From: Pseudodesulfovibrio mercurii
GTDB taxonomy: Bacteria > Desulfobacterota > Desulfovibrionia > Desulfovibrionales > Desulfovibrionaceae
Direction of reading: 5' to 3'
Assembly: GCF_000189295.2 (NCBI RefSeq)
Contig: NC_016803.1
Span: forward strand, 1,560,001 to 1,592,000
Length of the DNA: 32,000 nucleotides
Shown here: piece by piece, positions 4,096 through 23,804 of the stretch
Numbering within the stretch: position 1 is the stretch's first letter
Layout of the letters: every line of letters begins with the position of its first letter
Position numbers and translations under genes: made by a program
Notes under the pieces: model-generated
Seen by the model: only the letters and a program-made list of their open reading frames with translations
What the model was told of the DNA's origin: nothing
Database searches by the model: none

Positions 4096-4099
4096 GGCG

Positions 4100-8689: not shown

Positions 8690-8705
8690 TGCGAAAATCG
8701 TTCCA
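8690..8705 (-). promoter_or_regulatory. Sigma-54 (-24/-12)-like promoter upstream of eutB
   Basis: The minus strand reads TGGAACGATTTTCGCA against consensus TGGCACG-N4-TTGCW. GG and GC have the correct 10-nt separation and there are two mismatches. About 60 nt upstream of the eutB ATG. No enhancer-binding protein gene is present in the window. Confidence 0.35.
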
Positions 8706-8904
8706 GCCCGGTCCCCGGCCACGGGACCGCGCGCCGGGGCTCCCCGACCATACCCGGCCGGGTGCCCCGGGACAAGGCGTCGCCCGGACAAAGACCGCTC
8801 CGGCCGCGTTCCTTCGTCGTCCCCGGCCGGGCCGGACCGTCTACAACAATGTCACACGGACGCGGTTCAAATGCCCAAAACGGCAAAACCGGCGGGGAGC
8901 CGGT

Positions 8905-9318: not shown

Positions 9319-10706
9319 GCGCACTCCTTGCTTTGCCCGCCCGCGAGGGGAGGATGCGTCGTCGGTCGGCCCCGTCGCCGGGGAAGGTCCAGGCAGGCCA
9401 GGGCGCAACGGGCGAACAGCTCCACCCCGGGGGCCAGGCAGGCCTCGTCGAAATCGAAACGGGGGTTGTGGTGCCCGGCGGCCAGGTCGCTGCCGAGCAT
9501 GAGGTACGCCCCCAGGCCGCCCTGGGCCTGGACCGCGTCGAGCATCAGGGCGAAGTCCTCGCTGGCGCGCATGTCTGCCCGGTCGCGGATGTCGGTGAAG
9601 CGGCCCATGGCCTCGGCCGCGCGGCGCACCACGGCCGCCGCCTCCGGGTCGCTCCGGCCGCCCGGTGACCGACCCTGGACCGTGATCTCGTGGTCCACGC
9701 CGTACATCATGGCCGCCCCGGCGACCACCTCCCGCGCCCGCTCGAAGACGAACCGGTCGATCTCGGTGGTCCGGCCGCGCGTTTCGGCCTCGATCACCGC
9801 CCCGGCCGGGATGACGTTGCGCCCCTGGCCCGCGTGCAGCGTGCCCACGGTGATCCGCGAGGTCCCCTGGCCGTGGCGCGGAATGGCGTGCAGGTTCAGG
9901 GCCGCGTTGGCCGCGGCCAGCAGGGCGTTGCGCCCCTGCTCCGGGGCCGCCCCGGCATGGGCCGCCACCCCGGTAAAAGCAACGTCGAACTTGGTGGTGG
10001 CCAGGAACCCCTCCACGCCGCAGACCAGCTGCCCGGTCCGGGGGGCGCGCAGGCCGATATGCCCGCCCAGGAGGTAGTCCACGCCGTCGAGCACGCCCGC
10101 GTCGACCATGGGCCCGGCCCCGCGCACGCCCTCCTCGCCGGGCTGGAAGATCAGCCGGACCGTGCCGTGCAGCCGGTCCCGGAGCTCGGCCAGCAGTTCG
10201 GCCACACCCAGCCCTATGGCCGTGTGCCCGTCGTGGCCGCAGGCGTGCATGGCCCCCGCGTTGACCGAGGCGAACCCCACGCGGTGGGGCCGGTGGCCGT
10301 TGTCGCGGGCCTCGTCCAGATCGTTGGCGTCCATGTCGAAGCGCAGGGCCACCACCGGGCCGGGGCCGCAGTCGAGTTCCCCCACGACCCCGGTCAGGCC
10401 GTCAGCCATGCGTGCGATGAGGTCCGGATCGCCGCCCTGGGCCACGGCCCGGTCCATGTGGACCGCCAGCTCCCGGGCCGGGGGCGCGCCGAACATGGAC
10501 TCGCGGCGCACCGCGTCCCCGCCCAGGCGCACCGCGTACCCGGCCTCGGCCAGGGCCCGCGCCACCAGGGAGGCGGTCCGGAACTCGGTCCAGGCCGTCT
10601 CGGGATACCGGTGCAGGTCCCGCCGCCGGGCGATGAGCCCGTCCTTCATCCCGGCCGCCATCCCGGCCGCCAGCCGTACATTTTCCATGGTCGCGTGATC
10701 CGTCAT
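9315..10706 (-). CDS. M20-family amidohydrolase (M20D; AbgA/hippurate-hydrolase/aminoacylase-like)
   Basis: Trimmed to the ATG at 10706 (MTDHATMENV...) with GGGAGGAAG upstream, giving 463 aa. Motifs HRYPE, MHACGHDGH and FQPGEEG are typical of M20D amidohydrolases. Confidence 0.8.
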   Translation of the reverse strand: MTDHATMENVRLAAGMAAGMKDGLIARRRDLHRYPETAWTEFRTASLVARALAEAGYAVRLGGDAVRRESMFGAPPARELAVHMDRAVAQGGDPDLIARMADGLTGVVGELDCGPGPVVALRFDMDANDLDEARDNGHRPHRVGFASVNAGAMHACGHDGHTAIGLGVAELLAELRDRLHGTVRLIFQPGEEGVRGAGPMVDAGVLDGVDYLLGGHIGLRAPRTGQLVCGVEGFLATTKFDVAFTGVAAHAGAAPEQGRNALLAAANAALNLHAIPRHGQGTSRITVGTLHAGQGRNVIPAGAVIEAETRGRTTEIDRFVFERAREVVAGAAMMYGVDHEITVQGRSPGGRSDPEAAAVVRRAAEAMGRFTDIRDRADMRASEDFALMLDAVQAQGGLGAYLMLGSDLAAGHHNPRFDFDEACLAPGVELFARCALACLDLPRRRGRPTTHPPLAGGQSKECA

Positions 10707-10792
10707 GTGCTTCCTCCCGGACGTCCCCCTGTTGTGGACCAACGGGCGGCCAAATGCAAAGGGCAAGGAGGCCCCGTCCCCGGCCCGGACGC

Positions 10793-10823
10793 AAAACGGC
10801 CCGGAAGGTCATCCTTCCGGGCC
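10793..10823 (-). terminator. Rho-independent terminator after the His-rich gene
   Basis: The minus strand reads GGCCCGGAAGG-atga-CCTTCCGGGCC followed by GTTTTGCG. This is a perfect 11-bp GC-rich stem, 38 nt after the stop at 10861. Confidence 0.6.
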
Positions 10824-10860
10824 GTCGGTTTCGTCCGCGCCGGGCCGTCGCGCCCGTTGC

Positions 10861-11157
10861 CTAATCGTGGCTGTGGCCGTGCCCGTCGCCGCCGTCGTGG
10901 GCGTGGCCCTCGTCGTGGCTGTGGGTGCCGTGGCCGTGCTTGTGCTCGCCCTCGACCCCGTGCTCATGCCCGTGCTCATGCTCATGGCTGTGCACGTGGC
11001 AGTGTTCATGGGTATGGGTGGTGCCATCCTCGTGGGTGTGCTCGTGCACGTGAGCGTGTTCGTGCTCATGTTCGTGCATATGCCCGCCCTTGTCACCGTG
11101 GGCGTGCTTGTGGGCCACCTTGTCCTTGCCGGTGTTGCAACCGCAGTCCTTGCACAT
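10861..11157 (-). CDS. Histidine-rich metal-binding protein with HypB-like N-terminal MCxxCGC motif and no GTPase domain
   Basis: Trimmed from ORF 10861-11286 to the ATG at 11157, with AAGGAGGA 5 nt upstream. The 98-aa product is MCKDCGCNTGKDKVAHKHAHGDKGGHMHEHEHEHAHVHEH...GHGHSHD. By my count 32 of 98 residues are His, mostly at alternating positions. It has its own terminator (10793-10823). Confidence 0.8.
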   Translation of the reverse strand: MCKDCGCNTGKDKVAHKHAHGDKGGHMHEHEHEHAHVHEHTHEDGTTHTHEHCHVHSHEHEHGHEHGVEGEHKHGHGTHSHDEGHAHDGGDGHGHSHD

Positions 11158-11349
11158 GGCGTCCTCCTTCGGGGCTGAATCATAGCCCTCTGAATAAAGT
11201 ATGTATTCGATTCCCGCCGAAGACAAGCCCCGCAACAAAATTCCCTTCGTGCCCGGACCCGGGGACCGGTCCCGGCCGGGTGGCACGGCTTGGCACGAAC
11301 GCCGCGGCCGTGCCCCCCGCGGCGCACGTTCCGCCGCCCGATGCCCGGA

Positions 11350-12582
11350 TCAGTCCAGACCCGCCACGTAGTCCATGATGGCCTGGGCCGAACGTTTGGA
11401 GCGGCTCACGGCCTCGGCCACGGTCTTGGCCCCGGTGACCACGTCGCCCGAGGCGAACACGCCCTCGCGGGTGGTCCGGCCGTCCTCGTCGGTGATGATC
11501 AGGCCGGTCTTGCCCACCTCCAGGCCCACCAGGTTGGAGCGCGGGGCCTGGCTGACCGCGATGAAGGTCGAGTCGGCCTCGAACAGGAACTCCGAGCCCT
11601 CCACGGGCTCCACGCGGTTGCGGCCGTCCTCGCCCTCCACGACCCGCGTTTCCACGCAGATCACGCCCTGTTCGGTCAGTTCCTCGGGGGAGGTGTGGAA
11701 GCGGAAGCGGACCCCGTCCACCTTGGCGTACTCGTATTCGTATTTGGTGGCGGTCATGTCCGCCTCGCCCCGGCGGTAGAGCACGGTGACCTCGCGGACG
11801 CCCTTGCGCAGGGCGGTCCGGGCCACGTCCATGGCCACGTTGCCCGCGCCGATGACCGCGACCCTCGGTCCCAGGTTGTAGACGCCGGGATTCTGGAGAT
11901 AGTGGATGGCGTAATGCACGTTGCCCAGGGTCTCGCCCTTGAGGCGCAGCGGCTTGGGGTTCCAGACCCCGGTGCCGATGAAGATCGCACGGTAGTCGTC
12001 GCGGAACAGGTCGTCGATGCCGATGACCGGCCCGATGAGCGTGTTGGGCCGGATCTTCACGCCCAGGCCCAGGAGCTTTTCCTTGAGCTTCTCGAGGATG
12101 TCCTTGGGCAGGCGGAAGTCCGGGATGCCATACTGGAGCACCCCGCCGATCCTCTCCTTGGACTCGAACAGGGTCACGTCGAACCCCTGGCGGGCCAGGA
12201 TGATGGCCACGGTGATCCCGGCCGGGCCGGACCCGATGATGGCGATGCGCTTGCTGTTGTTGCCGTTTGCCGGGCGCTCGGGCTGGAACTGCTCCAGGTA
12301 GTAGCGGGAGATGTACTGTTCGATGCTGCTGACCTGGACCGGCGCGCCCTTTCTGCCCAGGACGCAGTGTCCCTCGCAGAACCGTTCGTGCGGGCAGATC
12401 AGCGAACAGACCGCGGTCAGGGGGTTGTTGTCGAACAACAGCGCGCCCGCCTTGCGCATGTCGCCCGCGAGCAGGGCCTCGACCATGAGGTTGGCCGGGG
12501 TGGAGACGGGACAGCCCTTGCTGCACAACGGCTTCTTGCACTGGAGGCAGCGCGCCGCCTCTTCGATGATGTGTTTGCCCAT
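11350..12582 (-). CDS. GltD/NfnB/SudA-like FAD- and NAD(P)-dependent oxidoreductase with N-terminal Fe-S cluster motifs
   Basis: Trimmed to the ATG at 12582 (MGKHIIEEAARCLQCKKPLCSKGCP...) with AGGAAGGA upstream, giving 410 aa. Cys motifs CLQCKKPLCSKGCP and CSLICPHERFCEGHC. Two Rossmann motifs, IAIIGSGPAG and VAVIGAGNVAMD. GDV..G near the C-terminus. Confidence 0.85.
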   Translation of the reverse strand: MGKHIIEEAARCLQCKKPLCSKGCPVSTPANLMVEALLAGDMRKAGALLFDNNPLTAVCSLICPHERFCEGHCVLGRKGAPVQVSSIEQYISRYYLEQFQPERPANGNNSKRIAIIGSGPAGITVAIILARQGFDVTLFESKERIGGVLQYGIPDFRLPKDILEKLKEKLLGLGVKIRPNTLIGPVIGIDDLFRDDYRAIFIGTGVWNPKPLRLKGETLGNVHYAIHYLQNPGVYNLGPRVAVIGAGNVAMDVARTALRKGVREVTVLYRRGEADMTATKYEYEYAKVDGVRFRFHTSPEELTEQGVICVETRVVEGEDGRNRVEPVEGSEFLFEADSTFIAVSQAPRSNLVGLEVGKTGLIITDEDGRTTREGVFASGDVVTGAKTVAEAVSRSKRSAQAIMDYVAGLD

Positions 12583-12992
12583 TCCTGTTCCTTCCTGGTT
12601 GTCGATATGACCCGGCACGCCGGACAGACAGATGGTCCTACAGGAACTCCGGAAAACGCGCAATTCCCGCATGTCCGTTAGACCGCCGGGTCATTCTGAT
12701 CCGGCGGTACCCCCGAAACGGGGCACATGACCCCAGGAGTCCCGCCGAGCGGCGGCCAAAAGCGGTCGATTCACCCCGGTTGTCCCGGTCCGGCACGGTT
12801 CGCCAACATCTTTGATTTACGTAATATTCCCGACCATACCGGGAGAAAACGCCCCGCCTTCGCCGCCGGACCGTGCGGCTGGTCCCGGAATTGCCGGGCG
12901 AACCCATTCGGCGCCACCCTTTGCCGGAAAGGAAGGCCGCCCGACCATGGCGCCGCCGTCCGGGGCAGTTCCGCCCCCTTCCGCTGATGAGA

Positions 12993-13023
12993 ATACATCG
13001 ATCAATAGAATGCTCCGATGTAT
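12993..13023. repeat. 8-bp inverted repeat ATACATCG-N15-CGATGTAT in an AT-rich island upstream of the receptor promoter
   Basis: Read directly: arms at 12993-13000 and 13016-13023. The island stands out against the GC-rich surroundings. Confidence 0.4.
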
Positions 13024-13037
13024 ATTGGTATGTTCAA

Positions 13038-13077
13038 TCGAGCATAATAATTGACATGTCCTGTCGAGCATAATAAT
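13038..13077 (+). promoter_or_regulatory. Two identical 14-bp direct repeats (TCGAGCATAATAAT) with 26-bp period, bracketing a candidate sigma-70 promoter for the receptor operon
   Basis: Repeats at 13038-13051 and 13064-13077. A perfect TTGACA at 13051-13056 lies between them. AATAAT (13072-13077, 15-nt spacing) lies inside repeat 2. This would give a leader of about 140 nt before the ATG at 13225. Confidence 0.4.
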
Positions 13078-13224
13078 AGAACCTTCTGTCTGGGATGTTC
13101 TGCTATTCCACCGTTCGCAACGCTGCTGCTGGATGCGGCACGGTCGCGTTCCGCGAGGTCATGGGGGGCCGCGCGGTTATCCCGGACACGCGGCCGGTCT
13201 GCCCATGCTCATGAGGAAACCGGA

Positions 13225-15195
13225 ATGAAATGCTCTCGACTGCTGCTGCTCATCGGACTGTTCGTCGCGCTCTGCGCCACGCCGTCCCTCGCCCAGGACG
13301 GGGACGGCAAAACCCAGGACAAGGCCGAGTACACCCTCGGTGAAGTCGTTGTCAGCGACTCGTCCAGCGTCCTGGAGAAATCGACCACGGTGACGGAGAT
13401 CACCGGAGAGGAACTGAAGAACGCCGGGGCCCTGACCCTGGCCGACGCCTTCAAGATGGTGCCCGGCGTGACCACCCGCACCGCGGCCGACGGCACCTGC
13501 CGCATCGACATCCGCGGCATGCGCACCCGGAACATCAAGCTGCTGCTCAACGGCATCCCGTTCCAGTCCGTGCTGGACGGCCAGTTCGACCCGGACGCCA
13601 TCCCGGTGGAGAACATCGCCCGCATCAAGATCACCCGCGGCGCGTCCTCGGTGCTCTACGGCAACGACGGCAACGCGGGCGTCATCGACATCATCACCAA
13701 GAAGGGTACCAAGGATTTTAAGGGAACGGCCGGCGCCATGGCCGGCCAGGGCGATCTCTACAAGCTCCAGACCACCATCGCGGGCGGCATGGACAAGCTG
13801 GACTACTACATGGGGGCCAGCTACCTGACGCGCAACGGCTACCCGGTCTCCTCGGACTTCGACAATACCCTTTACCAGGACTCGGACCTGCGCAAAAACA
13901 GCGACCGCGAACACGTCAACGTGCTCGGCAACATGACCTACCAGGCCAGCGACAGCACCAGCTTCGGCGCGGTCCTCAACCTGTTCGAGGGTGAGTACGG
14001 CAAGCCGCCGTCCACCATCAAGGGCAGCGCCACCGACCCGTTCGCCAAGACGCCCAAGTACGAGCGCGTCCTGGACTACAGCGGCGCGGACGCGCAACTG
14101 GCCATGAACCACGAGTTCAACAAGACCGTGGACACCCGGTTGATGATCTACGCCAGCCGCGAGTACAACGAGACCTCGCGCTACGACGACGACAACTACG
14201 ACACCCAGACCAAGAAGGGCTCGTTCCACAGCAAGTCCACGTCCACCACCCTGGGCCTGAACAACCAGTGGGGCTACAACACCGACTCCTTCGGCCGGTT
14301 CGTCCTGGGCCTCATCGGCGAGCGCCAGAACTGGAGCGAGAACGGCTTCACCCGGATCAACAACACCACGTCCGGGCCGCTCGACGCCGACGAGACCCTG
14401 AGCAACTACGTCGTCGCCCTCCAGGACGACGTGTCGCCGCTCAATGACCTCCAGGTCTCCCTCGGCCTCAGCCTCAACGGCCAGGCCCGGAGCTACAAGA
14501 CGTTGAACACCTACTCCTACGTGCTGGCGGCCAATTACCAGCTCTTCGAGGGCACCAACATCAAGGCCTCCCAGGCCCGCAAGATCCGCAACCCCTCGAT
14601 CCAGAACCTGTATGACTCCGTCGCGGGCAACGCCGATCTGACCAACGAGATCAACTGGCTGTACGAGGTGGGCATCTCCCAGGCCCTGCCCCTGGCCTCC
14701 ACCCTGGACTTCACCGTGTTCCGGAACGATTCCGAGAACTACATCGAAAAAGTGGGCGACGTTTACCAGAACCACGACAAGTACCTCTTCCAGGGCTTCG
14801 AGACCACCCTGTCCTCCCGCCTGGCGGAAGGACTGTCCACCCAGTTGGGCTACACCTACCTGGACAGCCAGAACCTCTCGGACGACGCCCAGACGCACAA
14901 GCTGCAATACCGGCCGCGCCACAAGATCACCGCCCAAGGCACCTGGGTGGCCCCCACGAAGACCACGATCTTCGCCGGGTGGCGCTTCTTCTCCGACCAG
15001 TGGACCATCGAAGGGTCCGAGACCAAGCACATGCCCGACTACGGGCTGGTGGACATCAAGATCAGCCAGGCGTTCACGGACGCCCTGTCAGTCTACGTCG
15101 GCGCGGACAACCTGTTCGACGTGGACTACGAAGAGTCCTACGGCTTCGCCCGGCCCGGGCGCGTCGTCTACACGGGGCTGGACTACACGTTCTAG
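13225..15195 (+). CDS. TonB-dependent outer-membrane receptor (small, BtuB/CirA size class)
   Basis: Trimmed from ORF 13051-15195 to the ATG at 13225 with GAGGAA 5 nt upstream, giving 656 aa. Signal peptide MKCSRLLLLIGLFVALCATPSLA. TonB-box-like GEVVVS. Plug motifs IDIRGM and VLYGNDGNAGVIDIITKKG. Barrel end GRVVYTGLDYTF with terminal Phe. Confidence 0.9.
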   Translation: MKCSRLLLLIGLFVALCATPSLAQDGDGKTQDKAEYTLGEVVVSDSSSVLEKSTTVTEITGEELKNAGALTLADAFKMVPGVTTRTAADGTCRIDIRGMRTRNIKLLLNGIPFQSVLDGQFDPDAIPVENIARIKITRGASSVLYGNDGNAGVIDIITKKGTKDFKGTAGAMAGQGDLYKLQTTIAGGMDKLDYYMGASYLTRNGYPVSSDFDNTLYQDSDLRKNSDREHVNVLGNMTYQASDSTSFGAVLNLFEGEYGKPPSTIKGSATDPFAKTPKYERVLDYSGADAQLAMNHEFNKTVDTRLMIYASREYNETSRYDDDNYDTQTKKGSFHSKSTSTTLGLNNQWGYNTDSFGRFVLGLIGERQNWSENGFTRINNTTSGPLDADETLSNYVVALQDDVSPLNDLQVSLGLSLNGQARSYKTLNTYSYVLAANYQLFEGTNIKASQARKIRNPSIQNLYDSVAGNADLTNEINWLYEVGISQALPLASTLDFTVFRNDSENYIEKVGDVYQNHDKYLFQGFETTLSSRLAEGLSTQLGYTYLDSQNLSDDAQTHKLQYRPRHKITAQGTWVAPTKTTIFAGWRFFSDQWTIEGSETKHMPDYGLVDIKISQAFTDALSVYVGADNLFDVDYEESYGFARPGRVVYTGLDYTF

Positions 15196-15220
15196 CCCGC
15201 CGGGGAGCGTCCAGGAGCAT

Positions 15221-16564
15221 ATGTCGGCACATCTGCGCCTGCGGGAACTGAGCATACGGTTCAACGACCGAACACCGCCGGTCCTCACCGGAGTCAATCT
15301 CTCGGTGGGGGCCGGCGAATGCCATTGCATCGTCGGTCCCACCGGAAGCGGCAAGTCCAGCCTCCTGCTGGCCGCCGCGGGCCTGCTCCCCCCCGAGGCC
15401 CTGAACGGGGCGATGGAGCGCACCGGACGGGCCGGCACCGTGTTCCAGAATCCCGGCACCCAGATCCTCTTCGACCACGTGGGTCCTGAGACCGCCTTCG
15501 CCCTGGAGAACGCGGGCGTCGATCCCGCCGCCATGCCGGACAAGGTCGCCCGCGCCCTGGCCGAGGCGGATCTGCCCGTGCCCACCCACACCCCGACCTC
15601 CAGCCTGTCCATGGGACGCCAGTACCGCCTGGTCCTGGCCGGGGCCCTGGTCACGGAACCGGGGCTGCTCCTGCTCGACGAGCCCTGCGCCCAGCTCGAC
15701 CCGGACGGCTGCCGCGCCGTGGCCGGGGTGGTGGACGCCGTCCTGAAGCGGGGCGGCGGCGTGCTCCTGTGCGAGCACCGGCCCGATCCCCTGGCGGCGC
15801 ACATCACCCACTGGTGGCGCATCGAGGACCACGGGCTGCGCCCGTCCGAGCCGGTCCTCGCCCCGGCCCCGCCGCCGCGCGCGGCGAACCGGCCGACCGA
15901 CGGGACCGGACCGGCCCTGCTGGAGGTCTGGGACCTGTCCCTCCGGCGGGGGGACCACCAGGTCTTTTCCGGCCTCGACCTGACCATCCGGCCGGGCGAG
16001 GCCGTGCACGTGGAGGGCGGCAACGGCAGCGGCAAGTCCACCCTGACCCGCATCCTGGCCGGGTTCCTGGCCCCGGACGCGGGCACCGCGACCCTGTTCG
16101 ACCAGCCCGTGGCCCCGGCCCGGCTGCGCGGCCGGGTGGGCCTGGTCCTGCAAAGCCCTTCCAGCCAGCTCTTCGAGGACACGGTCCTGCGCGAGCTGGC
16201 CTACGCGGCCCGGCGCAAGGGACTGGACGACCCCGAGGGCCGGGCCCGGTGCGCGGCCAAGGCGCTGGGCATCAGCGACCTGCTGGACCGCGCCCCGTTC
16301 CTGCTCAGCTACGGCCAGCAGCGGCTGACCGCCCTGGGGGCGTGCCTGACCCAGGAGCCGGACCTGCTCCTGCTGGACGACCCCTTCGCCGGGCTGGACC
16401 GGGAGGCCCGCGAGCGGGTCCACGGCGTGCTCGACGCGGAGCGCGCCCGGCGCGGCATGGCCGTGCTGGTCACGGGTCACAACCCGACCTCTTCCCTTCG
16501 TTTCGCCGATTTCTATACCCGCGAGCTGCGGATTTCAGGGGGCCGTCTTGAACCCGTGGCCTGA
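15221..16564 (+). CDS. Fused double ABC ATPase (EcfA/CbiO-like A-A fusion)
   Basis: 447 aa with AGGAG upstream. NBD1 has GPTGSGKSS, LSMGRQ, LLLLDEP and CEH. NBD2 has GGNGSGKST, LSYGQQ, LLLLDDP and TGH. It is followed by an EcfT-like gene rather than a type I/II permease. Confidence 0.8.
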   Translation: MSAHLRLRELSIRFNDRTPPVLTGVNLSVGAGECHCIVGPTGSGKSSLLLAAAGLLPPEALNGAMERTGRAGTVFQNPGTQILFDHVGPETAFALENAGVDPAAMPDKVARALAEADLPVPTHTPTSSLSMGRQYRLVLAGALVTEPGLLLLDEPCAQLDPDGCRAVAGVVDAVLKRGGGVLLCEHRPDPLAAHITHWWRIEDHGLRPSEPVLAPAPPPRAANRPTDGTGPALLEVWDLSLRRGDHQVFSGLDLTIRPGEAVHVEGGNGSGKSTLTRILAGFLAPDAGTATLFDQPVAPARLRGRVGLVLQSPSSQLFEDTVLRELAYAARRKGLDDPEGRARCAAKALGISDLLDRAPFLLSYGQQRLTALGACLTQEPDLLLLDDPFAGLDREARERVHGVLDAERARRGMAVLVTGHNPTSSLRFADFYTRELRISGGRLEPVA

Positions 16565-17249
16565 ACCGTCCGCGCGCCCGGCCCGCTTCAGGCCCCCGGC
16601 CTGGCTCATGCTCATCCTCTGCCCGGTGCTGTCGCTCCTGGCCGTGGTCTGGCACGGACCGTGGTCCATGCCGGTCCTGGCCGTGATCGAGGGCGGGCTG
16701 CTGCTGATCTCGCGGCCCGGCCCGCGCCGTCTGCTGCGCCTGGCCATGGCCTGCTTCTGGCAGATCGCGGTGGTCACGGGGCTGTACTGCCTGCGCTTCG
16801 GCCCAGGCGAGTGGCGCGGCGGACTGGACGTGTCCCTGCGCCTGATCCTGGTCTTCGTGCCGGGCATGCTGACCGTCCGCCTGGTGCCCCCGGCCGCCCT
16901 GGAACGGATCCTCAAGCGCATCCTGCCCGGCAACCTGCCCTTCGTGGCCGCCTGCTGCCTGCGCTTCTTCCCCCTGCTCATCGAACGCGTGCGCGTCATC
17001 CACGAGGCCCAGGTCCTACGCGGGGCGCGGGTGCTGCCGCGCGAATTGCTCAACCCGCGCAACTGGCCCGACGCCGTGTCCTGCATCGGCCTGCCCGCCG
17101 TGCTGCAAAGCATCGAGCTGGCCACGGAGATCGCGGACAGCGCCAAGGCCAGGGGGTTCTCCATGCGCGGCAACCGCACGGCCTGGCCCCTTGACGAAGC
17201 ACAACGCCACGCGGAGGCCGAGGCCGCCGCAGAGGAGTCCCTCCCTTGA
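16548..17249 (+). CDS. ECF transporter T component (EcfT/CbiQ-like)
   Basis: 233 aa with TTG start at 16548 after AGGGGG; an alternative ATG lies at 16608. Overlaps the ATPase gene by 17 nt. Five or so hydrophobic helices. Two Ala-Arg-Gly-type coupling motifs (AQVLRGAR and SAKARGFS), characteristic of T components. Confidence 0.7.
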   Translation: MNPWPEPSARPARFRPPAWLMLILCPVLSLLAVVWHGPWSMPVLAVIEGGLLLISRPGPRRLLRLAMACFWQIAVVTGLYCLRFGPGEWRGGLDVSLRLILVFVPGMLTVRLVPPAALERILKRILPGNLPFVAACCLRFFPLLIERVRVIHEAQVLRGARVLPRELLNPRNWPDAVSCIGLPAVLQSIELATEIADSAKARGFSMRGNRTAWPLDEAQRHAEAEAAAEESLP

Positions 17250-17812
17250 CCGACAACGCCCCTTACAACGGTCCCTCCACCGCCCTGCGGGACACCCTGC
17301 TCATGGGCTTCTGCGCCCTGTTCCTGCTGGCCACCAAGATGGTCCTGCGCCTGAACCTGGGCATTCCGGGCCACGCCATGTTCTTCACCATCTTCTTCCT
17401 GATCCTGCCCAGGGCGGTGACCGGGCTGAAGTTCGCGGCCACGGCCACGGGTCTGGCGGCGGGCCTGGCCTCGGTGCTGCTCGGCATGGGCAAGGGCGGC
17501 CCCCTGCTGCTGCTCAAGTTCCTGTTCCCGTCCCTGTGCGTGGACCTGGCCTTCCTGTTCTTTCCCGGCCTGGGCGGCTCGCTGCTCTTCTGCGCCCTGG
17601 TCGGATTCATCGCGGCCGCCACCCGCATCATCGGCGTGGCGGTCACGGACTGGCTGGTGGGCATGGACCCCGAGATCATCATGGCCCACGCCTTCCTCAA
17701 GACCCTCGGCGGCGCCCTGTTCGGGGCGCTGGGCGGCCTGGCCGTCGCACCCATCATCCGTAAACTCAAGGCACGGGGCCTTCTCCCCGCGACCCCACAA
17801 CCAAGAGGCTGA
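17246..17812 (+). CDS. Small six-helix integral membrane protein; candidate ECF substrate-capture (S) component of unknown family
   Basis: 188 aa. The TTG start at 17246 overlaps the upstream TGA (TTGA) and AGAGGAG lies 8 nt upstream. I count six hydrophobic segments. Size and position after A and T genes fit an S component. It lacks the CbiM/NikM MHIxxG N-terminus. Confidence 0.5.
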   Translation: MTDNAPYNGPSTALRDTLLMGFCALFLLATKMVLRLNLGIPGHAMFFTIFFLILPRAVTGLKFAATATGLAAGLASVLLGMGKGGPLLLLKFLFPSLCVDLAFLFFPGLGGSLLFCALVGFIAAATRIIGVAVTDWLVGMDPEIIMAHAFLKTLGGALFGALGGLAVAPIIRKLKARGLLPATPQPRG

Positions 17813-17813
17813 C

Positions 17814-18548
17814 ATGCGCTACTATCTCTGCATCGACGACACCGACAACCTGGAGACCAAGGGCACCGGCTGGCTGGCCGAACAGGCCTGCAACGAGATG
17901 AAGGACCTGGGGCTGGGCTCGTTCTCGGCCATCAGCCGCCACCAGCTCTTCGTCCACGAGGACGTGCCCTACACCTCGCACAACAGCTCCATGTGCATGG
18001 AGATGGAGGAGTGCGGCGACCCCGAGGCGGTCATCCGCTACATGCAGGCCTTCCTCGAACGCAACGGCGCGCCCGGCTCCGACCCCGGCCTGTGTCTGGT
18101 CCCCGAGACCCTGTCCGGCGAGGCCAGGGAGCGGCTCATCCGCTTCGGCAACGACGCCAAGTGCACGGTGCTGAACAAGGGACTGGCCTACGGCTTGGCC
18201 GGTGAGCTGGGCGTGCACCTGTCCGAGCACGGCGGCACGGGCGACGGCGTGGTCGGCGCCCTGGCGGGCGTGGGCTTGCGCATGGGCGGCCAGGACGGCC
18301 GCTACCGGAGCTGGATGCACCTGGGGCCCGACGGCACGGTCATGCCCGCGGGCGAGGTCGCCCGGCTGTGCGGGGCCCATCACGTCCAGGACGAGGCGGA
18401 CGCGGTCCTGGCCGACGAGACCCCGGTCCTGCTCCAGGAGCAGATCAAGCTCATCCGCCGCCACGGCCAGGCCGTGCTCCTGGCCCGCCCCGACAACGGG
18501 AACGGGACCATGCGCCTGCTGCACAAGAAGGAATTGAAGATTTACTGA
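17814..18548 (+). CDS. Soluble protein with TiaS N-terminal kinase-domain-like motifs (IDDTD...T18); function unknown
   Basis: 244 aa with ATG at 17814 and AAGAGG upstream, 2 nt after the previous stop. The N-terminus MRYYLCIDDTDNLETKGTGWL and the later GTGDGVVGALAGVG resemble remembered archaeal TiaS (MRVWVGIDDTDSSRGMCTTYL ... GRGLIGALAAVG). No signal peptide or transmembrane segment. Confidence 0.45.
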   Translation: MRYYLCIDDTDNLETKGTGWLAEQACNEMKDLGLGSFSAISRHQLFVHEDVPYTSHNSSMCMEMEECGDPEAVIRYMQAFLERNGAPGSDPGLCLVPETLSGEARERLIRFGNDAKCTVLNKGLAYGLAGELGVHLSEHGGTGDGVVGALAGVGLRMGGQDGRYRSWMHLGPDGTVMPAGEVARLCGAHHVQDEADAVLADETPVLLQEQIKLIRRHGQAVLLARPDNGNGTMRLLHKKELKIY

Positions 18549-18589
18549 GTCAACGGCCGCAGCCCGGCCCCAGCCCGCAAGGATGTGCC

Positions 18590-19426
18590 ATGAAGACCCG
18601 CCTCCGCCTGTTCGCCGCTCTGTTCCTCCTGCTCCCGCTCTGCGCGGGAGTCCTGGCCGAGCGCCCCGCCCACGCTGGGGACGAGGCTATCCCGGCCGCA
18701 CGGACGCGGGTGGAGGATTCGGCGCGCCGTGCCGGGACCGCCGGGGTCCGGGCCGAGAAATGGGCCGCCGAGCGCGAAGGCCTGCTCGACGAGGCCCGCC
18801 AGCTGCTTTACGACACCGAGGCGGACCGTTTCGCCGTGGCCCGGCAGGAGGCGTACATCGCCCGCGAACGGGCGGACATCAAGGAGCTCGGGGAACGCAC
18901 GGACGCGGCCCTGGCCACCCGGCGCGATCTGGACCGGGTCATGGAGACCCTCTACGCGGCCCTGGTCCGGGCGCGTGACCGGGACCTGCCCTTTGCCGAG
19001 GACGAGCGGAGGGCCAGGCTGGCCGCCCTGCGCCGGACCCTGGACGACCCCGACGCCCCGTCCGGCGAAAAGCTCGGCCGTCTGCTGGAGGCCCTGCGCA
19101 TGGAGGCGGGCTACAGCCTCGACGTGGAGGCCGAGGACGCGGTCATGCAGGTGCGCGGCGCGCCCATGGCCGTGACCGTGCTGCGCGCGGGCAGGCTGGC
19201 CCTGCTGCGCATGCCCGCCTCGGGCGCGTGGGTCGAACGGTTCGAACCGGCCTCGGCCGAGTGGGTCGAACTGCCCGGAGCCGACGGCCGCGAGCTGGTC
19301 AAGGCGGTGCAGATAGCCCGCAAGCAGCGCATCGCGGAGCTGATCTACCTGCCCGTGGGCCACGGAGCCCAGCCGACCGAATCGCAGTCCGCCGCCCAAA
19401 CCGCACAGACCGGGGAGGCGCAATGA
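18590..19426 (+). CDS. Periplasmic coiled-coil protein, DUF3450/TtpB-like first gene of a TonB2-type cluster
   Basis: Trimmed from ORF 18368-19426 to the ATG at 18590 with AAGGA upstream, giving 278 aa. Signal peptide MKTRLRLFAALFLLLPLCAGVLA. The central region is charged and heptad-like. The assignment rests on position and size immediately before a TtpC-like gene. Confidence 0.6.
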   Translation: MKTRLRLFAALFLLLPLCAGVLAERPAHAGDEAIPAARTRVEDSARRAGTAGVRAEKWAAEREGLLDEARQLLYDTEADRFAVARQEAYIARERADIKELGERTDAALATRRDLDRVMETLYAALVRARDRDLPFAEDERRARLAALRRTLDDPDAPSGEKLGRLLEALRMEAGYSLDVEAEDAVMQVRGAPMAVTVLRAGRLALLRMPASGAWVERFEPASAEWVELPGADGRELVKAVQIARKQRIAELIYLPVGHGAQPTESQSAAQTAQTGEAQ

Positions 19427-20868
19427 TCCGCCTTGCCCGCCGCCCGATTGTTTTTCCGATCCTCCGCCTGCGGCTCTGCCCGGCCCTGTGGCTGCTCCTC
19501 TGTCTCGCCGTGGCCGTTCCGGTCCTGGCCCGAACGGCTCGCGCGGCGGACGACGCCACAGCCCGCCTGGACGGCCTGGCCCGGGACATGACGGCCCGGA
19601 CCGGGGCCGTGAACAAACTCCTCGACCTGGACCGCGATCAACTCCGCACAAAGGTGGCCGCCCTGCGCAAGGCCCGCGACGCAGAGCGGGCCCGGCTGGA
19701 CAAGGCCGTGGCCGAACTGGCCCGGCTGCGCGGCGAGCGCGCGGAGCTGGCCGCCCGATACGACGCCGTGGCCGGGGAGATGCGCGCGGTGGAGGACGCG
19801 GTCCGGTCCAACGCGGCCCAGGCCCGCACCCTGCTCGCGGCGAGCGCCCTGACCTCCCTGGTTCCGGACCGCCTGGCCCCCCTGGACCGCGTGGCCCGGT
19901 CCCGCGACTTTCCCGGCCTCCCGACCATCACCGGTCTGGGAGGGCTGCTCCTGGACGAGATCCGCTCCGGAGCCACCGCCGAGACGCGGCCGGGGACCTT
20001 CCTCGGCCCGGACGGCCGGACGCGGACCGGCGGCCTGCTGCGCGCGGGCAGCCTGTTTCTCGGAGCCCGCGACGAGGACGGCCGGACCTGCCTGCTGACT
20101 CCCGGCTCCACGCCGCCGCAGGCCGTGGCCGCCACGCCCGGCGAGGCGGAAAAGGCCATGGCCGCCTGGGCCGACGGCGCGGGGCAGGTCCTGCCCGTGG
20201 ACCCGTCCCACGGCGCGGCCCTGTCCCTGCTTCAGGCCCGGCGCACCCTGGACGACTGGGTCCAGGGCGGCGGCCTGCTCCTGTGGCCCATCCTGGTCAT
20301 CGGCCTGGCCGCCCTGCTGGTGGTCTTCTACAAGGGCGCGCGCCTGTTCCTGGCCCGGCCCTGCCCCAGGGATTTCGCTCTGCGGTTGCGCACGGCCTGG
20401 GACGCGGACGGCCCGTCCGGTCTGACCCGGCTGCTGAAATCCCTGCCGCGCACCCCGGCGGCGCGGGTCCTGCTCTGGGCCGCTCCCGACGCCGACCCGG
20501 AGCTCCGGGACAAACGGCTCCAGGAGGGGTTCCTGGCCGAGCTGCACCGGCTGGAAAGCGGGCTGGGCTTCATCGCGGTCATGGCCGCCGTGGCCCCGCT
20601 CCTCGGCCTGCTCGGCACGGTCACGGGCATGATCGACTCCTTCCAGGCCGTGACCGTGTTCGGCACGGCCAACCCCCGGATCATGTCCAGCGGCATCAGC
20701 GAGGCGCTGATCACCACCCAGGCAGGCCTCGGCGTGGCCATCCCGGCCATGCTCCTGCACCAGTTCCTCAAGCAGCGAGTCCAGGGGCTGGCCTCGGACA
20801 TGGAGCAGCAGTGCGCGGCCTTCCAGGCCCTGCTCGCCGCGAACCCGGACAAGGACGGCGCGGCATGA
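19423..20868 (+). CDS. MotA/TolQ/ExbB-family proton-channel protein with a long N-terminal periplasmic coiled-coil domain (TtpC-like)
   Basis: Trimmed to the ATG at 19423, which forms an ATGA overlap and has GGGGAGG upstream, giving 481 aa. N-terminal signal/anchor, then a soluble region of about 250 aa. The C-terminus carries the family signature APLLGLLGTVTGMIDSF...GISEALITTQAGL. Confidence 0.8.
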   Translation: MIRLARRPIVFPILRLRLCPALWLLLCLAVAVPVLARTARAADDATARLDGLARDMTARTGAVNKLLDLDRDQLRTKVAALRKARDAERARLDKAVAELARLRGERAELAARYDAVAGEMRAVEDAVRSNAAQARTLLAASALTSLVPDRLAPLDRVARSRDFPGLPTITGLGGLLLDEIRSGATAETRPGTFLGPDGRTRTGGLLRAGSLFLGARDEDGRTCLLTPGSTPPQAVAATPGEAEKAMAAWADGAGQVLPVDPSHGAALSLLQARRTLDDWVQGGGLLLWPILVIGLAALLVVFYKGARLFLARPCPRDFALRLRTAWDADGPSGLTRLLKSLPRTPAARVLLWAAPDADPELRDKRLQEGFLAELHRLESGLGFIAVMAAVAPLLGLLGTVTGMIDSFQAVTVFGTANPRIMSSGISEALITTQAGLGVAIPAMLLHQFLKQRVQGLASDMEQQCAAFQALLAANPDKDGAA

Positions 20869-21410
20869 CCGGCCTGCTGCGGACCGTGCTCGACTTCGTC
20901 CACGCGGGCGGCGCGACCATGGCGCCCCTGCTGCTGTGCTGCCTGGCCATGTGGTATCTCATCCTGCGCGCCTGGCTCGACCTCCTGCCCGCATCGGCGG
21001 GCGGCCTGCGGGCCGAGCTGGAACAGACCTTCGCCCGGCTCTGCCCCGGCCCCGGTCCGGGGGACGCCGACCTGGCCGACGCCCTGGCCGAGGGCGTGCG
21101 CGCCCGTACCCGGCGCAGGCTCTCCCTGGCCGCCGTGTTCGCGGCCGCCGCCCCCCTGCTCGGCCTGCTCGGCACGGTCACGGGCATGATCGAGACCTTC
21201 GACGGCGTGGCCCGCTTCGGCTCGGCCTCGCCCCAGGTCCTGTCCTCGGGCATCAGCCAGGCCATGATCTCCACCCAGACCGGCCTGGTGGTGGCCGTGC
21301 CCGGCCTCATCGCCGTGTATTTCCTGCGCCGCCGCGCCCTGCGCCTGCACATCCGCCCGGAACGCGCACGCCCCGCCGTCCACGCCGTGACCGGAGGCGT
21401 CGCGCCATGA
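20865..21410 (+). CDS. exbB: ExbB-type proton-channel protein (short form)
   Basis: ATG at 20865 (ATGA overlap), 181 aa. Signature APLLGLLGTVTGMIETF...GISQAMISTQTGL. Confidence 0.85.
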   Translation: MTGLLRTVLDFVHAGGATMAPLLLCCLAMWYLILRAWLDLLPASAGGLRAELEQTFARLCPGPGPGDADLADALAEGVRARTRRRLSLAAVFAAAAPLLGLLGTVTGMIETFDGVARFGSASPQVLSSGISQAMISTQTGLVVAVPGLIAVYFLRRRALRLHIRPERARPAVHAVTGGVAP

Positions 21411-21844
21411 GAATCCTGCGCCGCGCCCAACGCGACGAGTCCGTGGACATCAACGTCGCCCCCATGGTGGACATGATCTTCATCCTGCTCATCTTCTTCC
21501 TGGCCACGGCCAGCTTCGTGCGCGAGAGCGGTGTGGACGTGCAGCGGCCTGCGGCGGCCAGCGCCGAGACCTCGGCGGACGAGGCCCTGATTATCGGGGT
21601 CACCGCCCAGGGCGCGCTGTCCATCGAGGGCGAGCGGCTGGACATCCGGGCCCTGCGCCCGCGCATGGAGCGGTTCGTGGCCGAACGCCCGGGCGGGCCC
21701 GTGGTCGTGGTCGCGGACCGGGACTGCCCCACGGGCATCACCGTGCGCGTGCTCGACGCCTGCCGTCTGGCCGGGGTGCGCTCGGTCAGCCTGGGGGCGC
21801 GGGCCGTGAAGGACGGATACGCTCCGGCCGGGGCGGCCCCATGA
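21407..21844 (+). CDS. exbD: ExbD/TolR-family biopolymer transport protein
   Basis: ATG at 21407 (ATGA overlap, GGAGG upstream), 145 aa. INVAPMVDMIFILLIFFL membrane anchor, typical of ExbD. Confidence 0.9.
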   Translation: MRILRRAQRDESVDINVAPMVDMIFILLIFFLATASFVRESGVDVQRPAAASAETSADEALIIGVTAQGALSIEGERLDIRALRPRMERFVAERPGGPVVVVADRDCPTGITVRVLDACRLAGVRSVSLGARAVKDGYAPAGAAP

Positions 21845-22485
21845 CCATGGGCAAGCCGCTGATCGCCCTGACGGGCGCGACGGCCGTGACCCTGGCCTTC
21901 TGCCTGCTCATCCCCCTGCTCGGCACGGTGCGCCACGCGGACGCCCCCATACTCCGGGACGACCCCGTGCCCGTGGCGGCCATGCCGCCCGAGACAAGAC
22001 ATCCGACCGAGGCGGGCGCGCCGGGCAGCATGGCCCGCGCCCTGCCGAGCGCGCCCCGGACACCGGCCGCGCCCCTGACCCTGCCAGCCTTGCAGGGACC
22101 GTCCGACATGCCCCTCCCGGCCCTGGAAGGGGAGCCCGAGTCCCTGGGATTGTCCATGAACGCGCCCGAGGGGCCTGGAGCCGTGCCCGCCGGGCCGGGC
22201 GACCCCGTCTTCGACCAGCCGCCGCGCGTGCTGACCCGGCTGGACCCGTACTATCCGGCGTCCGCCCGGCGCACCGGCACCCAGGGCCACGTCCTGGTCC
22301 GGGCCCTGGTGGACGAATACGGCCGGGTGACCGAGACCGAGGTGGTCGAGTCCGAACCGGCGGGCGTGTTCGACGAGGCGGCCCTCAAGGCCGTGCGCGG
22401 CTGGACCTTTGCCCCGGCCCGGCGCCGGGGAGAGCCCGTGGCCGTGCGCATCGACATCCCCATACGCTTCAGGCTGGACCGATGA
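21841..22485 (+). CDS. tonB: TonB energy transducer
   Basis: 214 aa (ATGA overlap). N-terminal anchor, Pro-rich linker, and a C-terminal domain YPASARRTGTQGHVLVRALVDEYGRV...AALKAVRGWTFAPA. Confidence 0.85.
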   Translation: MTMGKPLIALTGATAVTLAFCLLIPLLGTVRHADAPILRDDPVPVAAMPPETRHPTEAGAPGSMARALPSAPRTPAAPLTLPALQGPSDMPLPALEGEPESLGLSMNAPEGPGAVPAGPGDPVFDQPPRVLTRLDPYYPASARRTGTQGHVLVRALVDEYGRVTETEVVESEPAGVFDEAALKAVRGWTFAPARRRGEPVAVRIDIPIRFRLDR

Positions 22486-23804
22486 CCCGCCCCCGCCGCC
22501 ACGCCGCCCTCACGCCTTTCGCCCTGGCCCTGGTCCTGTGCCTGGGCCTCGCCCTGGGCCTGCCCGGTCCGGCCCGGGCGGGCCGCGCGCGGGACGACCG
22601 CCTGGGCCCGGCACAGTATGCCGCCGTGACCGAGGCGCGGGAGCTGATGGAACAGGGCGACCCGGCCGGAGCGGCGCAGCGGCTCCTGCCCGTGGCCGAC
22701 GAGGCGCGCCCGCCCCTGGTGGTCCTCGACCACCTGGCCTGGGCCCAGGAGCGGGCCGGTGCCCATGACGCGGCCCTGGTCACCTACCGCAGGGCCGCCG
22801 GTCTCTACCCGAACGACCCCGGCACGGCGCGCAACCTGGGCATCCTGCTGTTCAACCGCCAGCGGTTCGCCGAGGCGGCCCCGGCCCTGGAACGGGCCTA
22901 CGGCCTGCAACCCGAGGAGGGGCGCGAGCCCACCCTGCTGGCCATGGCCGGATCGGCCCAGGCCCGCATGCACCGCTTCCCCCAGGCCCTTGGCCTGCTG
23001 GACCGCGCCGAGACCACCGAGCCCGCCGCGCCCGTGTCCTGGACCGCCATGTCCGCCTACTGCTGCCTGCGACTGGACAGAACGGACGCGGCCCTGGCCC
23101 GCTGCCGCGCCTGCGCCCGACGCCATCCCCGCGACCCGGCGGCCTGGTCCCTGCTCGGCCGGGTCCTGGCCCGCCACGGCGACCCGCTCGCGGCCGCGTC
23201 CGCCCTGGAGACCGCCCGCGCCCTGCGCCCCGACGGCCGGGCCGCGCCGGACGAATACCGTGAGCTGGCCGCCCTGTACGCCCTGGGCCACGCCCACGCC
23301 GAGGCGGCCCGCTGCCTGGCCGCCGCCGACGAGCCCGGCACAACCCTGCGCCGGGCCGAACTGCTCCGCCTGAACGGCCGGAACCGGGAGGCCCTGGAAG
23401 CCCTGGACCGGTTCGACCGGGAGCGGGCCGCAAACACCGCAACCGGCCCGACCGTCACCCCCGAGGACGTCCTGCGGGCCGCCCTGTTGCGCGGCCGCAT
23501 CCTCCGGGACCTGGGCCGCACCGGGGAGGCCGTGGACGGGCTGCTGGCGTCGGCGCGTCCCCCTGCCGCCGATCCGGGGCGGACCGTGCAGCGCCTGCGG
23601 GGAGCCCTCCTGCTCCTGGCCGGGGAGCTGCGCTGGGGCGAGGGCGACTGGACCGGCGCGGCGCGCATCTTCGACGACCTCGCCGCCGTGCCGGGCTACG
23701 CCGACACCGGCGCGTCCCTGGCCGAGGGCATGCGGGCCATGGTCCGCGAGGCCGCCCTAGCCCCGGCCCCGCTCTCCCCCTCGTCGTTGACAGCCGCGCC
23801 CTGA
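22482..23804 (+). CDS. Exported tetratricopeptide-repeat protein (TtpD-like last gene of the TonB2-type cluster)
   Basis: 440 aa (ATGA overlap). Signal peptide ...LALVLCLGLALGLPGPARA. Repeated Ala/Leu/Arg-rich helical pairs such as AEAAPALERAYGLQPEE and PLAAASALETARALRPD. Confidence 0.7.
   Translation: MTRPRRHAALTPFALALVLCLGLALGLPGPARAGRARDDRLGPAQYAAVTEARELMEQGDPAGAAQRLLPVADEARPPLVVLDHLAWAQERAGAHDAALVTYRRAAGLYPNDPGTARNLGILLFNRQRFAEAAPALERAYGLQPEEGREPTLLAMAGSAQARMHRFPQALGLLDRAETTEPAAPVSWTAMSAYCCLRLDRTDAALARCRACARRHPRDPAAWSLLGRVLARHGDPLAAASALETARALRPDGRAAPDEYRELAALYALGHAHAEAARCLAAADEPGTTLRRAELLRLNGRNREALEALDRFDRERAANTATGPTVTPEDVLRAALLRGRILRDLGRTGEAVDGLLASARPPAADPGRTVQRLRGALLLLAGELRWGEGDWTGAARIFDDLAAVPGYADTGASLAEGMRAMVREAALAPAPLSPSSLTAAP

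Follow-up and report, generated by a model that had tools for sequence, protein, structure and literature searches.

A conserved receptor, ECF importer and TonB cassette of Pseudodesulfovibrio mercurii ND132, a candidate tungstate/molybdate acquisition system

A stretch of 32,000 nt of Pseudodesulfovibrio mercurii ND132 (contig NC_016803.1, positions 1,560,001 to 1,592,000; hereafter the window, whose own numbering is used) was analysed around eleven co-directional genes on the + strand at 13225-23804. These encode a TonB-dependent outer-membrane receptor, an energy-coupling factor (ECF) importer, a soluble protein with the fold of the TiaS kinase domain (TCKD; the TiaS-like or TCKD-like protein) and a TonB2-type energiser. 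The 11-gene cassette is real and conserved, and its module is widespread. Judged from the sequences and their gene neighbourhoods, it is probably an acquisition system for tungstate/molybdate or for a tungsten/molybdenum (W/Mo) complex. In related genomes, the TiaS-like gene and the receptor family occur with a MolBC-A-like or an ECF importer, and the TiaS-like gene also beside Tup-like, MOT1 and storage genes; of all these, the W/Mo oxyanion pool is the common denominator. Therefore, tungstate/molybdate is ranked first, with tungstate (or molybdate) itself as the most likely substrate and a W/Mo complex as the second. We infer the substrate in ND132, the direction of transport and the chemistry of the TCKD-like protein from this comparison. 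The combination of receptor, ECF importer, TCKD-like partner and W/Mo context is undescribed in the literature searched. That literature links neither ECF importers nor TiaS-like proteins with W/Mo, does not mention DND132_1412 to DND132_1417, and agrees with a first-pass annotation, made from the sequence alone, which had placed the TiaS-like gene in no known ECF or TonB module.

Organisation of the cassette and its products

Based on the ORF (open reading frame) listing, the junctions between the eleven genes measure, in order, 25, -17, -4, 1, 41, -4, -4, -4, -4 and -4 nt. The small gaps and seven overlaps described in the first-pass annotation were thus found again, the widest intergenic gap being 41 nt. 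As the genome has a GC content of about 70%, genes were assigned using third-position GC together with homology; all eleven have a third-position GC of 0.87-0.96, as in real genes. Terminator-like sites within the block are as frequent as in shuffled sequence (3 seen vs 3.1 expected), and a strict sigma-70 scan called no promoter inside it. The eleven genes can be regarded as one transport unit that is presumably co-transcribed. No binding-protein domain was found among the eleven products using Pfam and NCBIfam, and the absence of a periplasmic binding-protein gene from the block, claimed earlier, was thereby borne out.

The first gene (13225-15195, +) encodes the 656-aa receptor, whose identification is supported by matches to both the Plug (PF07715, 1.8e-22) and the barrel domain (PF00593, TonB_dep_Rec, 1.9e-27). 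It scores under the cut-off of every named NCBIfam receptor subfamily, and its closest solved structure is BtuB, at only 2e-16. After the signal peptide, the residues E-Y-T-L-G-E-V-V-V-S resemble a TonB box by eye.

The second gene (15221-16564, +) encodes a fused double ATPase (A-A) of 447 aa with two ABC_tran domains, as the first-pass annotation had proposed. Its best NCBIfam models are ECF_ATPase_2 (1.1e-63), cbiO (2.8e-63; 212.8 bits, cut-off 211.8) and ECF_ATPase_1 (7.9e-60), with Walker A motifs at residues 39 and 266 and Walker B motifs at 149 and 382. By sequence, the pair groups with ECF/CbiO ATPases and not with exporters or ABC-F proteins. It is followed by a T component of 233 aa (16548-17249, +), matched by CbiQ (PF02361) at 1.8e-9 with 38 bits against a Pfam cut-off of 25. 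The earlier assignment of this protein as CbiQ-like stood, while the two Ala-Arg-Gly motifs ascribed to it were corrected to one ARG (201-203) and one LRG (157-159), that is, two x-Arg-Gly motifs 44 residues apart.

Next comes S188 (17246-17812, +), a protein of 188 aa with six transmembrane helices that was assigned by predicted structure and fold search. No Pfam or NCBIfam family matches it, so by sequence it belongs to no named S family. An AlphaFold model built with 21 homologues has six long helices, a pLDDT (predicted local distance difference test) of 88 and a pTM (predicted template-modelling score) of 0.84. When compared to the PDB using Foldseek, it matches ECF S components only, at template-modelling (TM) scores of 0.55-0.61 with all else below 0.33, in line with the earlier proposal of an S component that is not of the CbiM/NikM type. 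The matches are YkoE (5edl, the best; E 1e-3, TM 0.59), ThiT, RibU, 4hzu_S, 4huq_S and FolT. An exhaustive profile search gathered 351 representatives of the family, of which distant members match PF09819, one of them above the cut-off; we take PF09819 to be the YkoE-type S family. S188 is thus modelled as a YkoE-like ECF S component of a family without a model of its own. Two invariant motifs, IPGH and GMGKGGP, are located in loops 1 and 3, which connect helices 1-2 and 3-4. In S components, these loops presumably line the site of substrate binding, and the motifs would suit an anion. The N-terminus of S188 (MTDNAPYNG...) shows no conservation. S188 has no CbiM match and the block no CbiN-like gene. 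A CbiMNQO/NikMNQO identity was rejected on account of the missing CbiM/NikM-type N-terminal metal motif in S188 and of the absence of CbiN/NikN.

As predicted from sequence and models, the inner-membrane part has the features of a group-I ECF importer, except for sequence membership in a named S family, and it would form a complex active in uptake. Among its relatives, the S gene adjoins the T gene in every locus, fusions of a CbiQ-type T with an S188 domain occur (P0281, P0299 and P0306, 359-406 aa), and one locus (L089, 5863-7995) encodes an A-A-T fusion of 710 aa. Both kinds of fusion would be useful evidence of a physical complex and suitable targets for structural work. The closest known system is YkoEDC of Bacillus subtilis, for the uptake of thiamine precursors, which likewise has a dedicated operon with no gene for a soluble binding protein. 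There, too, the double ATPase is fused, the T is of the CbiQ type and the S has six helices and about 190 aa; this S, YkoE, is the best structural match of S188. In contrast to YkoEDC, S188 lies outside every Pfam/NCBIfam model, and the module is coupled here to an outer-membrane receptor, a TonB system and a TCKD-like protein in a W/Mo context, not a thiamine one.

The fifth gene (17814-18548, +) encodes the soluble TCKD-like protein of 244 aa, 100% identical to DND132_1416 of P. mercurii (Desulfovibrio desulfuricans ND132), with the TiaS kinase-domain fold and an extra C-terminal domain of about 85 aa. Single-sequence scans are weak (methanogenesis marker 11 at 3e-4, TiaS at 3e-3). A profile of 15 homologues matches the TiaS TCKD over residues 1-156 (E 3.4e-5), and the structural model (pLDDT 85.8) retrieves TiaS (4rvz, 5xob, 3amt) at E values around 1e-9 (best 1.6e-9) with a root-mean-square deviation of 2.3-2.9 A. 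The resemblance to the TiaS kinase domain noticed from the letters was therefore recovered by both profile and fold. Conserved in the family are D8, D9, T10 and D11 (the DDTD motif) and T18, which aligns with Thr18 of TiaS, next to many invariant His, Cys and Arg residues of its own. An ATP-dependent role is suggested by the conserved ATP-site residues. The C-terminal ~85 residues are modelled as a separate, mostly beta domain, for which no match was obtained, the whole-protein fold search having aligned the TCKD part only. TiaS itself is about 420 aa long and carries ferredoxin-like, OB and zinc-ribbon domains after the TCKD. The TiaS alignments end around residue 160, and the NCBIfam TiaS model gives 16 bits against a cut-off of 600. 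An identity as TiaS was rejected since the protein has only 244 aa and no counterpart of the TiaS domains downstream of the TCKD was detected. What is shared with TiaS is the TCKD fold, the DDTD motif and the Thr18 position in residues 1-160; the difference lies in a bacterial origin, a place beside transporters and an unrelated C-terminal domain of about 85 aa instead.

The last six genes encode a DUF3450 (TtpB-like) protein (278 aa; 18590-19426, +; PF11932, 2.9e-45), a TtpC-like long MotA/ExbB-family protein (481 aa; 19423-20868, +; MotA_ExbB at residues 355-461, 2e-30, after a long N-terminal extension), ExbB (181 aa; 20865-21410, +; MotA_ExbB, 5.9e-23), ExbD (145 aa; 21407-21844, +; PF02472, 2.3e-29), TonB (214 aa; 21841-22485, +; TonB_C, 7e-24, with TIGR01352 above its cut-off) and a TtpD-like tetratricopeptide repeat (TPR) protein (440 aa; 22482-23804, +; several TPR families, best 4e-11). 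They are joined by 4-nt overlaps and stand in TonB2-type order, as the first reading had it. The reference for this is the Vibrio TonB2 order TtpB-TtpC-ExbB2-ExbD2-TonB2-TtpD, with which the six genes agree both in protein types and in their succession. Unlike in Vibrio, the predicted energiser is part of one string of overlapping genes that holds a single receptor and a single importer, in a deltaproteobacterial anaerobe.

Conservation and tungsten/molybdenum context

In species-representative genomes, 598 matches to the TiaS-like family were confirmed. The best 80 of these were taken as a sample of loci, in which ORFs were called and clustered and the window proteins mapped. The family as a whole comprises 2,561 clusters at E<=1e-3 with the ND132 query and at least 6,540 at E<=1e-20 with a Firmicute query, and all source names shown are 'hypothetical protein' or automatic labels such as TiaS. 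Three contexts of the TiaS-like gene can be distinguished. In context (a), the receptor, A-A, T, S and TiaS-like genes occur as in the window, in varying order; this ECF-type class, defined by relatives of T and/or S188, makes up 14 of the 80 loci, one of them (L076) via a separate ECF-like set. In context (b), the same receptor family is encoded directly upstream of the TiaS-like gene. In context (c), found in 36 loci including many Firmicutes, the TiaS-like gene follows genes for a FecCD permease, an ATPase and a Peripla_BP_2 binding protein. Receptor orthologues with 34-44% identity adjoin the TiaS-like gene in 31 of the 80 loci, and both importer types (ECF and FecCD) are found paired with this receptor family.

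A second sample, started from distant S188 relatives, covers five places in six loci (L081, L082/L083, L087, L088 and L089), belonging to Ca. Abyssobacteria, Desulfatiglans, Poribacteria and two metagenome contigs. All five carry the receptor, A-A, T, S and TiaS-like genes. The core module is thus found in Desulfobacterota, Ca. Abyssobacteria, Poribacteria and Ferrimonas, in the last of which no receptor was detected beside it. The first-pass annotation had asked for such a check across genomes; the core recurs across phyla and the adjacency is not unique to ND132. P. sediminis, P. cashew and P. methanolicus keep all eleven genes of the block at 48-90% identity per protein, with flanks that differ from ND132 in the first two. 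TonB systems often neighbour the TiaS-like loci, and the six-gene TonB2-type set was found again in two of them (L010 and L011).

At least one W/Mo marker is present in 41 of the 80 TiaS-like loci. The conserved neighbours include a homologue of the molybdenum storage protein beta subunit (15 loci; 3e-64 to 2ogx_B, Azotobacter MosB) and MFS_MOT1 molybdate transporters (nine loci). TupA-like PBP_like_2 proteins, a ModB-like permease, MoeA (including a MoeA-PBP_like fusion), MoaA, MoaC, MOSC and MoeB/ThiF proteins are also encoded beside the TiaS-like gene, and in some loci TupA-like and ModB-like genes adjoin it. Among ECF-type cassettes of the two samples, MoeA lies directly upstream in L062, while MoaA and MOSC in L080, an HTH_17+PBP_like regulator in L081 and a TupA-like PBP_like_2 gene in L087 lie immediately upstream. 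The HTH_17+PBP_like pair is presumably of the TaoR/TupR tungstate-regulator type. A fitness paper on Desulfovibrio vulgaris describes the regulator TupR (citing Rajeev 2019) and, separately, a PF12727 domain on a MoeA. Among the conserved neighbours in the 80 loci, no Ni/Co, B12 or siderophore gene recurs. The first-pass annotation had left the substrate open, with a lean towards Ni, Co, Fe, Zn or a vitamin; the comparative evidence points to tungsten/molybdenum instead.

As a separate observation, the storage-protein homologue (L022, 8637-9467, and 14 further loci) is a single gene by the TiaS-like gene, often divergent and accompanied by a MerR or PadR regulator. Its recurrence suggests that the two may form a functional pair in anaerobes without the two-subunit Azotobacter system.

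The binding protein of context (c) has MolA (HI_1472) as its best solved relative (2.4e-25), ahead of all siderophore binders. As reported for Haemophilus influenzae, MolA is the molybdate/tungstate-binding partner of MolBC, and MolBC-A (HI1470-72) is a type II ABC (ATP-binding cassette) importer for molybdate/tungstate, a precedent for the passage of W/Mo oxyanions through a 'siderophore-type' importer. FecCD, ATPase and a MolA-related protein replace the ECF module in the 36 loci of context (c), whereas the window has neither a FecCD permease nor a Peripla_BP_2 binding protein. According to its published gene list (modA, molABC, modD-salX-cysU), the Haemophilus mol cluster has no TiaS-like gene and no receptor.

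These importer families also invite a different explanation, in which the cassette imports iron as a chelate or as haem and a riboswitch tie merely co-ordinates iron with iron-rich tungstoenzymes. Iron complexes are the best-known substrates of the receptor, FecCD and Peripla_BP_2 families. Three loci have a Fur-family gene nearby, and a protein with a Shr-like haem-binding domain follows some Firmicute operons. In a study of E. limosum, tungsten cofactor (Tuco) riboswitches precede two 'Fe ABC-type' transporters, one of these operons is up under tungsten limitation, and cell iron is higher on lactate vs glucose. When a TiaS-like gene was sought for these E. limosum operons ('fetABC'), no Eubacterium stood among the best 120 matches of a Firmicute-seeded protein search. 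On the other hand, the binding protein of context (c) is closer to MolA than to any siderophore binder, the 11-gene block has no siderophore or haem-processing gene, and the TiaS-like gene adjoins proteins without an iron role, namely MoSto-like (storage), MOT1, TupA-like, MoeA and MoaA/MoaC proteins and the PBP_like-domain regulator. Iron import is considered improbable.

The W/Mo assignment is further supported by a riboswitch. In Rfam scans of 29 related loci, RF01055, the molybdenum cofactor (Moco)/Tuco riboswitch, is the one recurring match; it precedes the TiaS-like operon and lies on its coding strand. With a custom covariance model made from 11 copies and run on the window and the 80 loci, 16 copies were found in 15 of the loci, compared with a rough chance expectation of about one per 1.3 Mb of unrelated loci. 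Nine of the 15 are Firmicute operons of context (c) and four are ECF-type operons of the Geobacter group (L036, L046, L063 and L035). In Geomonas (L036 and L046) the riboswitch is followed, in this order, by the genes for the TiaS-like protein, A-A, T, S, TonB, a fibronectin-III protein and the receptor. In Geobacter (L063) it is followed by those for the TiaS-like protein, a TupA-like protein, A-A and T, and L035 is truncated where its contig stops. The copy in L036, which was examined in detail, has no P3 stem, and its short junction is shared by the other aligned copies. As described in Regulski 2008 and in the E. limosum study, a P3-less riboswitch is of the tungsten-cofactor type. According to published counts, the genome of E. 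limosum has five such riboswitches and S. wolfei up to 15.

Some further observations were made in the riboswitch-bearing loci. Syntrophomonas (L072) has two Moco/Tuco-type copies less than 5 kb apart, at 4022-4153 (+) and 8808-8938 (-), one directly upstream of the TiaS-like gene and the other on the opposite strand near the storage-protein homologue. In Firmicute operons, a Big_5 protein is encoded by the first gene after the riboswitch (L025 6598-7143, L034 3640-4395, L058 5994-6893), and the protein with the Shr-like domain that follows some of them has the architecture SLH + Shr-like_HID (L040 10801-12060). In Geomonas L036, fibronectin-III proteins (6409-7758 and 9937-11370) flank the receptor. 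These surface-type Ig-like proteins may be extracellular capture proteins.

Proposed pathway and its weighing

The pathway proposed for the cassette would begin with the 656-aa receptor moving a W/Mo species across the outer membrane, a step that would be energised by the cassette's own TtpB-TtpC-ExbB-ExbD-TonB-TPR complex. In the inner membrane, S188 would then bind the substrate with no soluble periplasmic binding protein being used, and T and the fused A-A would power its import in the manner of YkoEDC and other group-I ECF systems. Finally, the cytoplasmic TCKD-like protein would spend ATP to trap, activate or hand the W/Mo species to the cofactor pathway. Tentatively, this might be narrowed down to uptake of the oxyanion by the TonB-dependent receptor and an anion-binding S188, with the TCKD-like protein using ATP for a step that links W/Mo import to the assembly of the cofactor, such as activation, trapping or selection of W versus Mo.

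Uptake of B12 without BtuF, by BtuB with BtuM or ECF-CbrT, is known, and receptor-NikMNQO/CbiMNQO pairs have been predicted. The pathway resembles the BtuB-BtuM/ECF-CbrT systems in that the receptor passes the substrate to an S-type inner-membrane protein without a periplasmic binding protein; it differs in the S family, in the substrate class and in the cytoplasmic TCKD-like partner, which those systems do not have. With TupABC, ModABC and WtpABC, the classical ABC importers for tungstate/molybdate, it has in common the predicted substrate and, in the cassette's relatives, control by a Tuco/Moco riboswitch. Those importers, in contrast, are type I systems that rely on a binding protein and lack a step at the outer membrane.

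A second explanation concerns the form in which the metal would enter. Instead of the oxyanion, an organic pterin (molybdopterin, a dephosphorylated or oxidised Moco/Tuco derivative, or a precursor) might be salvaged from anoxic surroundings, with the TCKD-like protein as a salvage kinase. Its conserved ATP-site residues and Thr18 agree with such a role, which, by analogy, would re-phosphorylate and trap the substrate in parallel with the vitamin kinases for other ECF substrates. ECF importers and BtuB-sized receptors typically carry vitamins or cofactors, and a cofactor riboswitch before a cofactor importer is the pattern of B12 and thiamine; the Moco/Tuco riboswitch senses the finished pterin cofactor, and YkoE, the closest structure to S188, is a vitamin-precursor S component. 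Among the structural neighbours of the TCKD-like model, HPPK comes next after TiaS, far weaker (E ~3e-3, TM 0.26-0.30). HPPK proteins are pterin pyrophosphokinases. This likeness is weak, however, and could reflect a common alpha/beta sandwich. Furthermore, where the other importer type takes this place beside the TiaS-like gene, it comes with a MolA-like protein, a binder of bare oxyanions, and the TiaS-like gene adjoins oxyanion systems (TupA-like, the ModB-like permease, MOT1 and the polyoxometalate storage homologue). To our knowledge, there is no report of Moco uptake by bacteria. Pterin salvage is therefore deemed unlikely.

Several points weigh against W/Mo acquisition as well. No W/Mo marker lies within 9 kb in 39 of the 80 TiaS-like loci, and one is present in only 6 of the 14 ECF-type loci. 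There is no Mo/W gene anywhere in the 32-kb window, and neither Rfam (to E<=10) nor the custom covariance model found a riboswitch upstream of the ND132 cassette, so that the substrate in ND132 is assigned by orthology alone. TonB-dependent receptors and ECF importers usually carry organic chelates or vitamins, and the literature searched describes neither of them for an oxyanion. The affinity of MolA is low, having been measured at about 100 uM, and the sole experimental paper with Tuco riboswitches before FecCD-type transporters, that on E. limosum, reads these as iron importers. Moreover, Desulfovibrio caledoniensis (L001, 8013-12721) has the left flank of ND132 (eutBC, M20 peptidase, the gene of a His-rich protein and that of a GltD-like oxidoreductase) followed by the TiaS-like gene and a sodium:solute symporter, the receptor, ECF and TonB2 genes being absent. 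By gene order, this corresponds to an insertion or deletion of ten genes that spared the TiaS-like gene. As the TiaS-like gene is kept alone in D. caledoniensis, its function does not depend on this transporter.

In sulfate reducers, syntrophs, Geobacter relatives and gut anaerobes, it is W/Mo enzymes such as formate dehydrogenases, aldehyde oxidoreductases and benzoyl-CoA reductases that drive the flow of carbon and energy, and both metals are scarce in sulfidic habitats. The known uptake routes, Mod, Tup and Wtp, rely on a binding protein and extend no further than the inner membrane. In the literature searched, no energised outer-membrane route and no ECF route for W/Mo was found: the fitness paper on D. 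vulgaris deals with tupABC and tupR only, and papers on Geobacter bemidjiensis and Geotalea daltonii treat other transporters. If W/Mo acquisition is true, the cassette would add a high-affinity path for W/Mo across two membranes. As far as the searches show, it would be the first oxyanion ECF transporter and the first W/Mo outer-membrane transporter of such a type. Two large families now annotated as hypothetical would gain a role, the TCKD-like protein as a new enzyme of W/Mo cofactor metabolism, and the 'iron transporters' behind tungsten-cofactor riboswitches would have another reading. ND132 is also a model for mercury methylation, which gives its uptake of trace metals practical interest, and ND132 and Geobacter/Geomonas are genetically tractable hosts, in which the hypothesis is directly testable.

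Flanking genes and upstream region

Upstream of the block, on the - strand, lie eutB and eutC (encoding the B12-dependent ethanolamine ammonia-lyase), then a GFA-family gene and an M20 peptidase gene (6417-8886), as well as the gene of a small His-rich protein (10861-11286, Met at about 11157; MCKDCGC...HEHEHEHAHVHEHTHEDGTTHTHEH...) without a Pfam family. An oxidoreductase gene stands between the His-rich gene and the 11-gene block. The His-rich gene has the same position in P. methanolicus and D. caledoniensis and is not found beside the cassette in P. sediminis and P. cashew. Its product probably binds Ni, Zn or Co and is unrelated to the cassette. The eutBC region likewise appears unrelated, given the lack of conserved linkage.

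These two neighbours, together with the receptor and ATPase matches, might point to import of a corrinoid (B12), nickel or cobalt. The best named models and structures of the receptor are BtuB, though far below the cut-offs, and T and A-A match the CbiQ and cbiO models. Against these stand an S188 that is not CbiM/NikM-like, the absence of CbiN, the lack of any recurring B12 or Ni/Co gene among the conserved neighbours and the fact that P. sediminis and P. cashew have neither eutBC nor the His-rich gene in the flank. Nor did Rfam find a cobalamin riboswitch in the window or in the 29 related loci. Corrinoid, nickel or cobalt import is considered highly improbable. Both eutBC as a clue to B12 and the His-rich protein as a clue to the substrate were rejected, neither being conserved with the cassette; the latter, used as a hint in the first-pass annotation, belongs to a separate unit that accompanies the cassette only in the closest relatives.

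At gathering level, Rfam gave no match in the whole window, and at E<=10 the region 12400-13400 returned chance-level matches only. Control of the ND132 cassette by a cobalamin or other riboswitch was rejected because of the missing Rfam match in the window. A candidate promoter/operator is located at 13038-13079 (+), where the direct repeat TCGAGCATAATAAT (13038-13051 and 13064-13077) surrounds TTGACA (13051-13056). The copies are 26 nt apart and about 150 nt before the receptor start, and, from its sequence, the repeat region is a candidate operator. The TTGACA box was not called by the strict sigma-70 scan. A TTGAC box and a CATAAT-like box are kept upstream of the receptor gene in four Pseudodesulfovibrio species, and in P. 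sediminis the palindrome ATTATGCCTAATTAGGCATAAT is found at the same upstream place.

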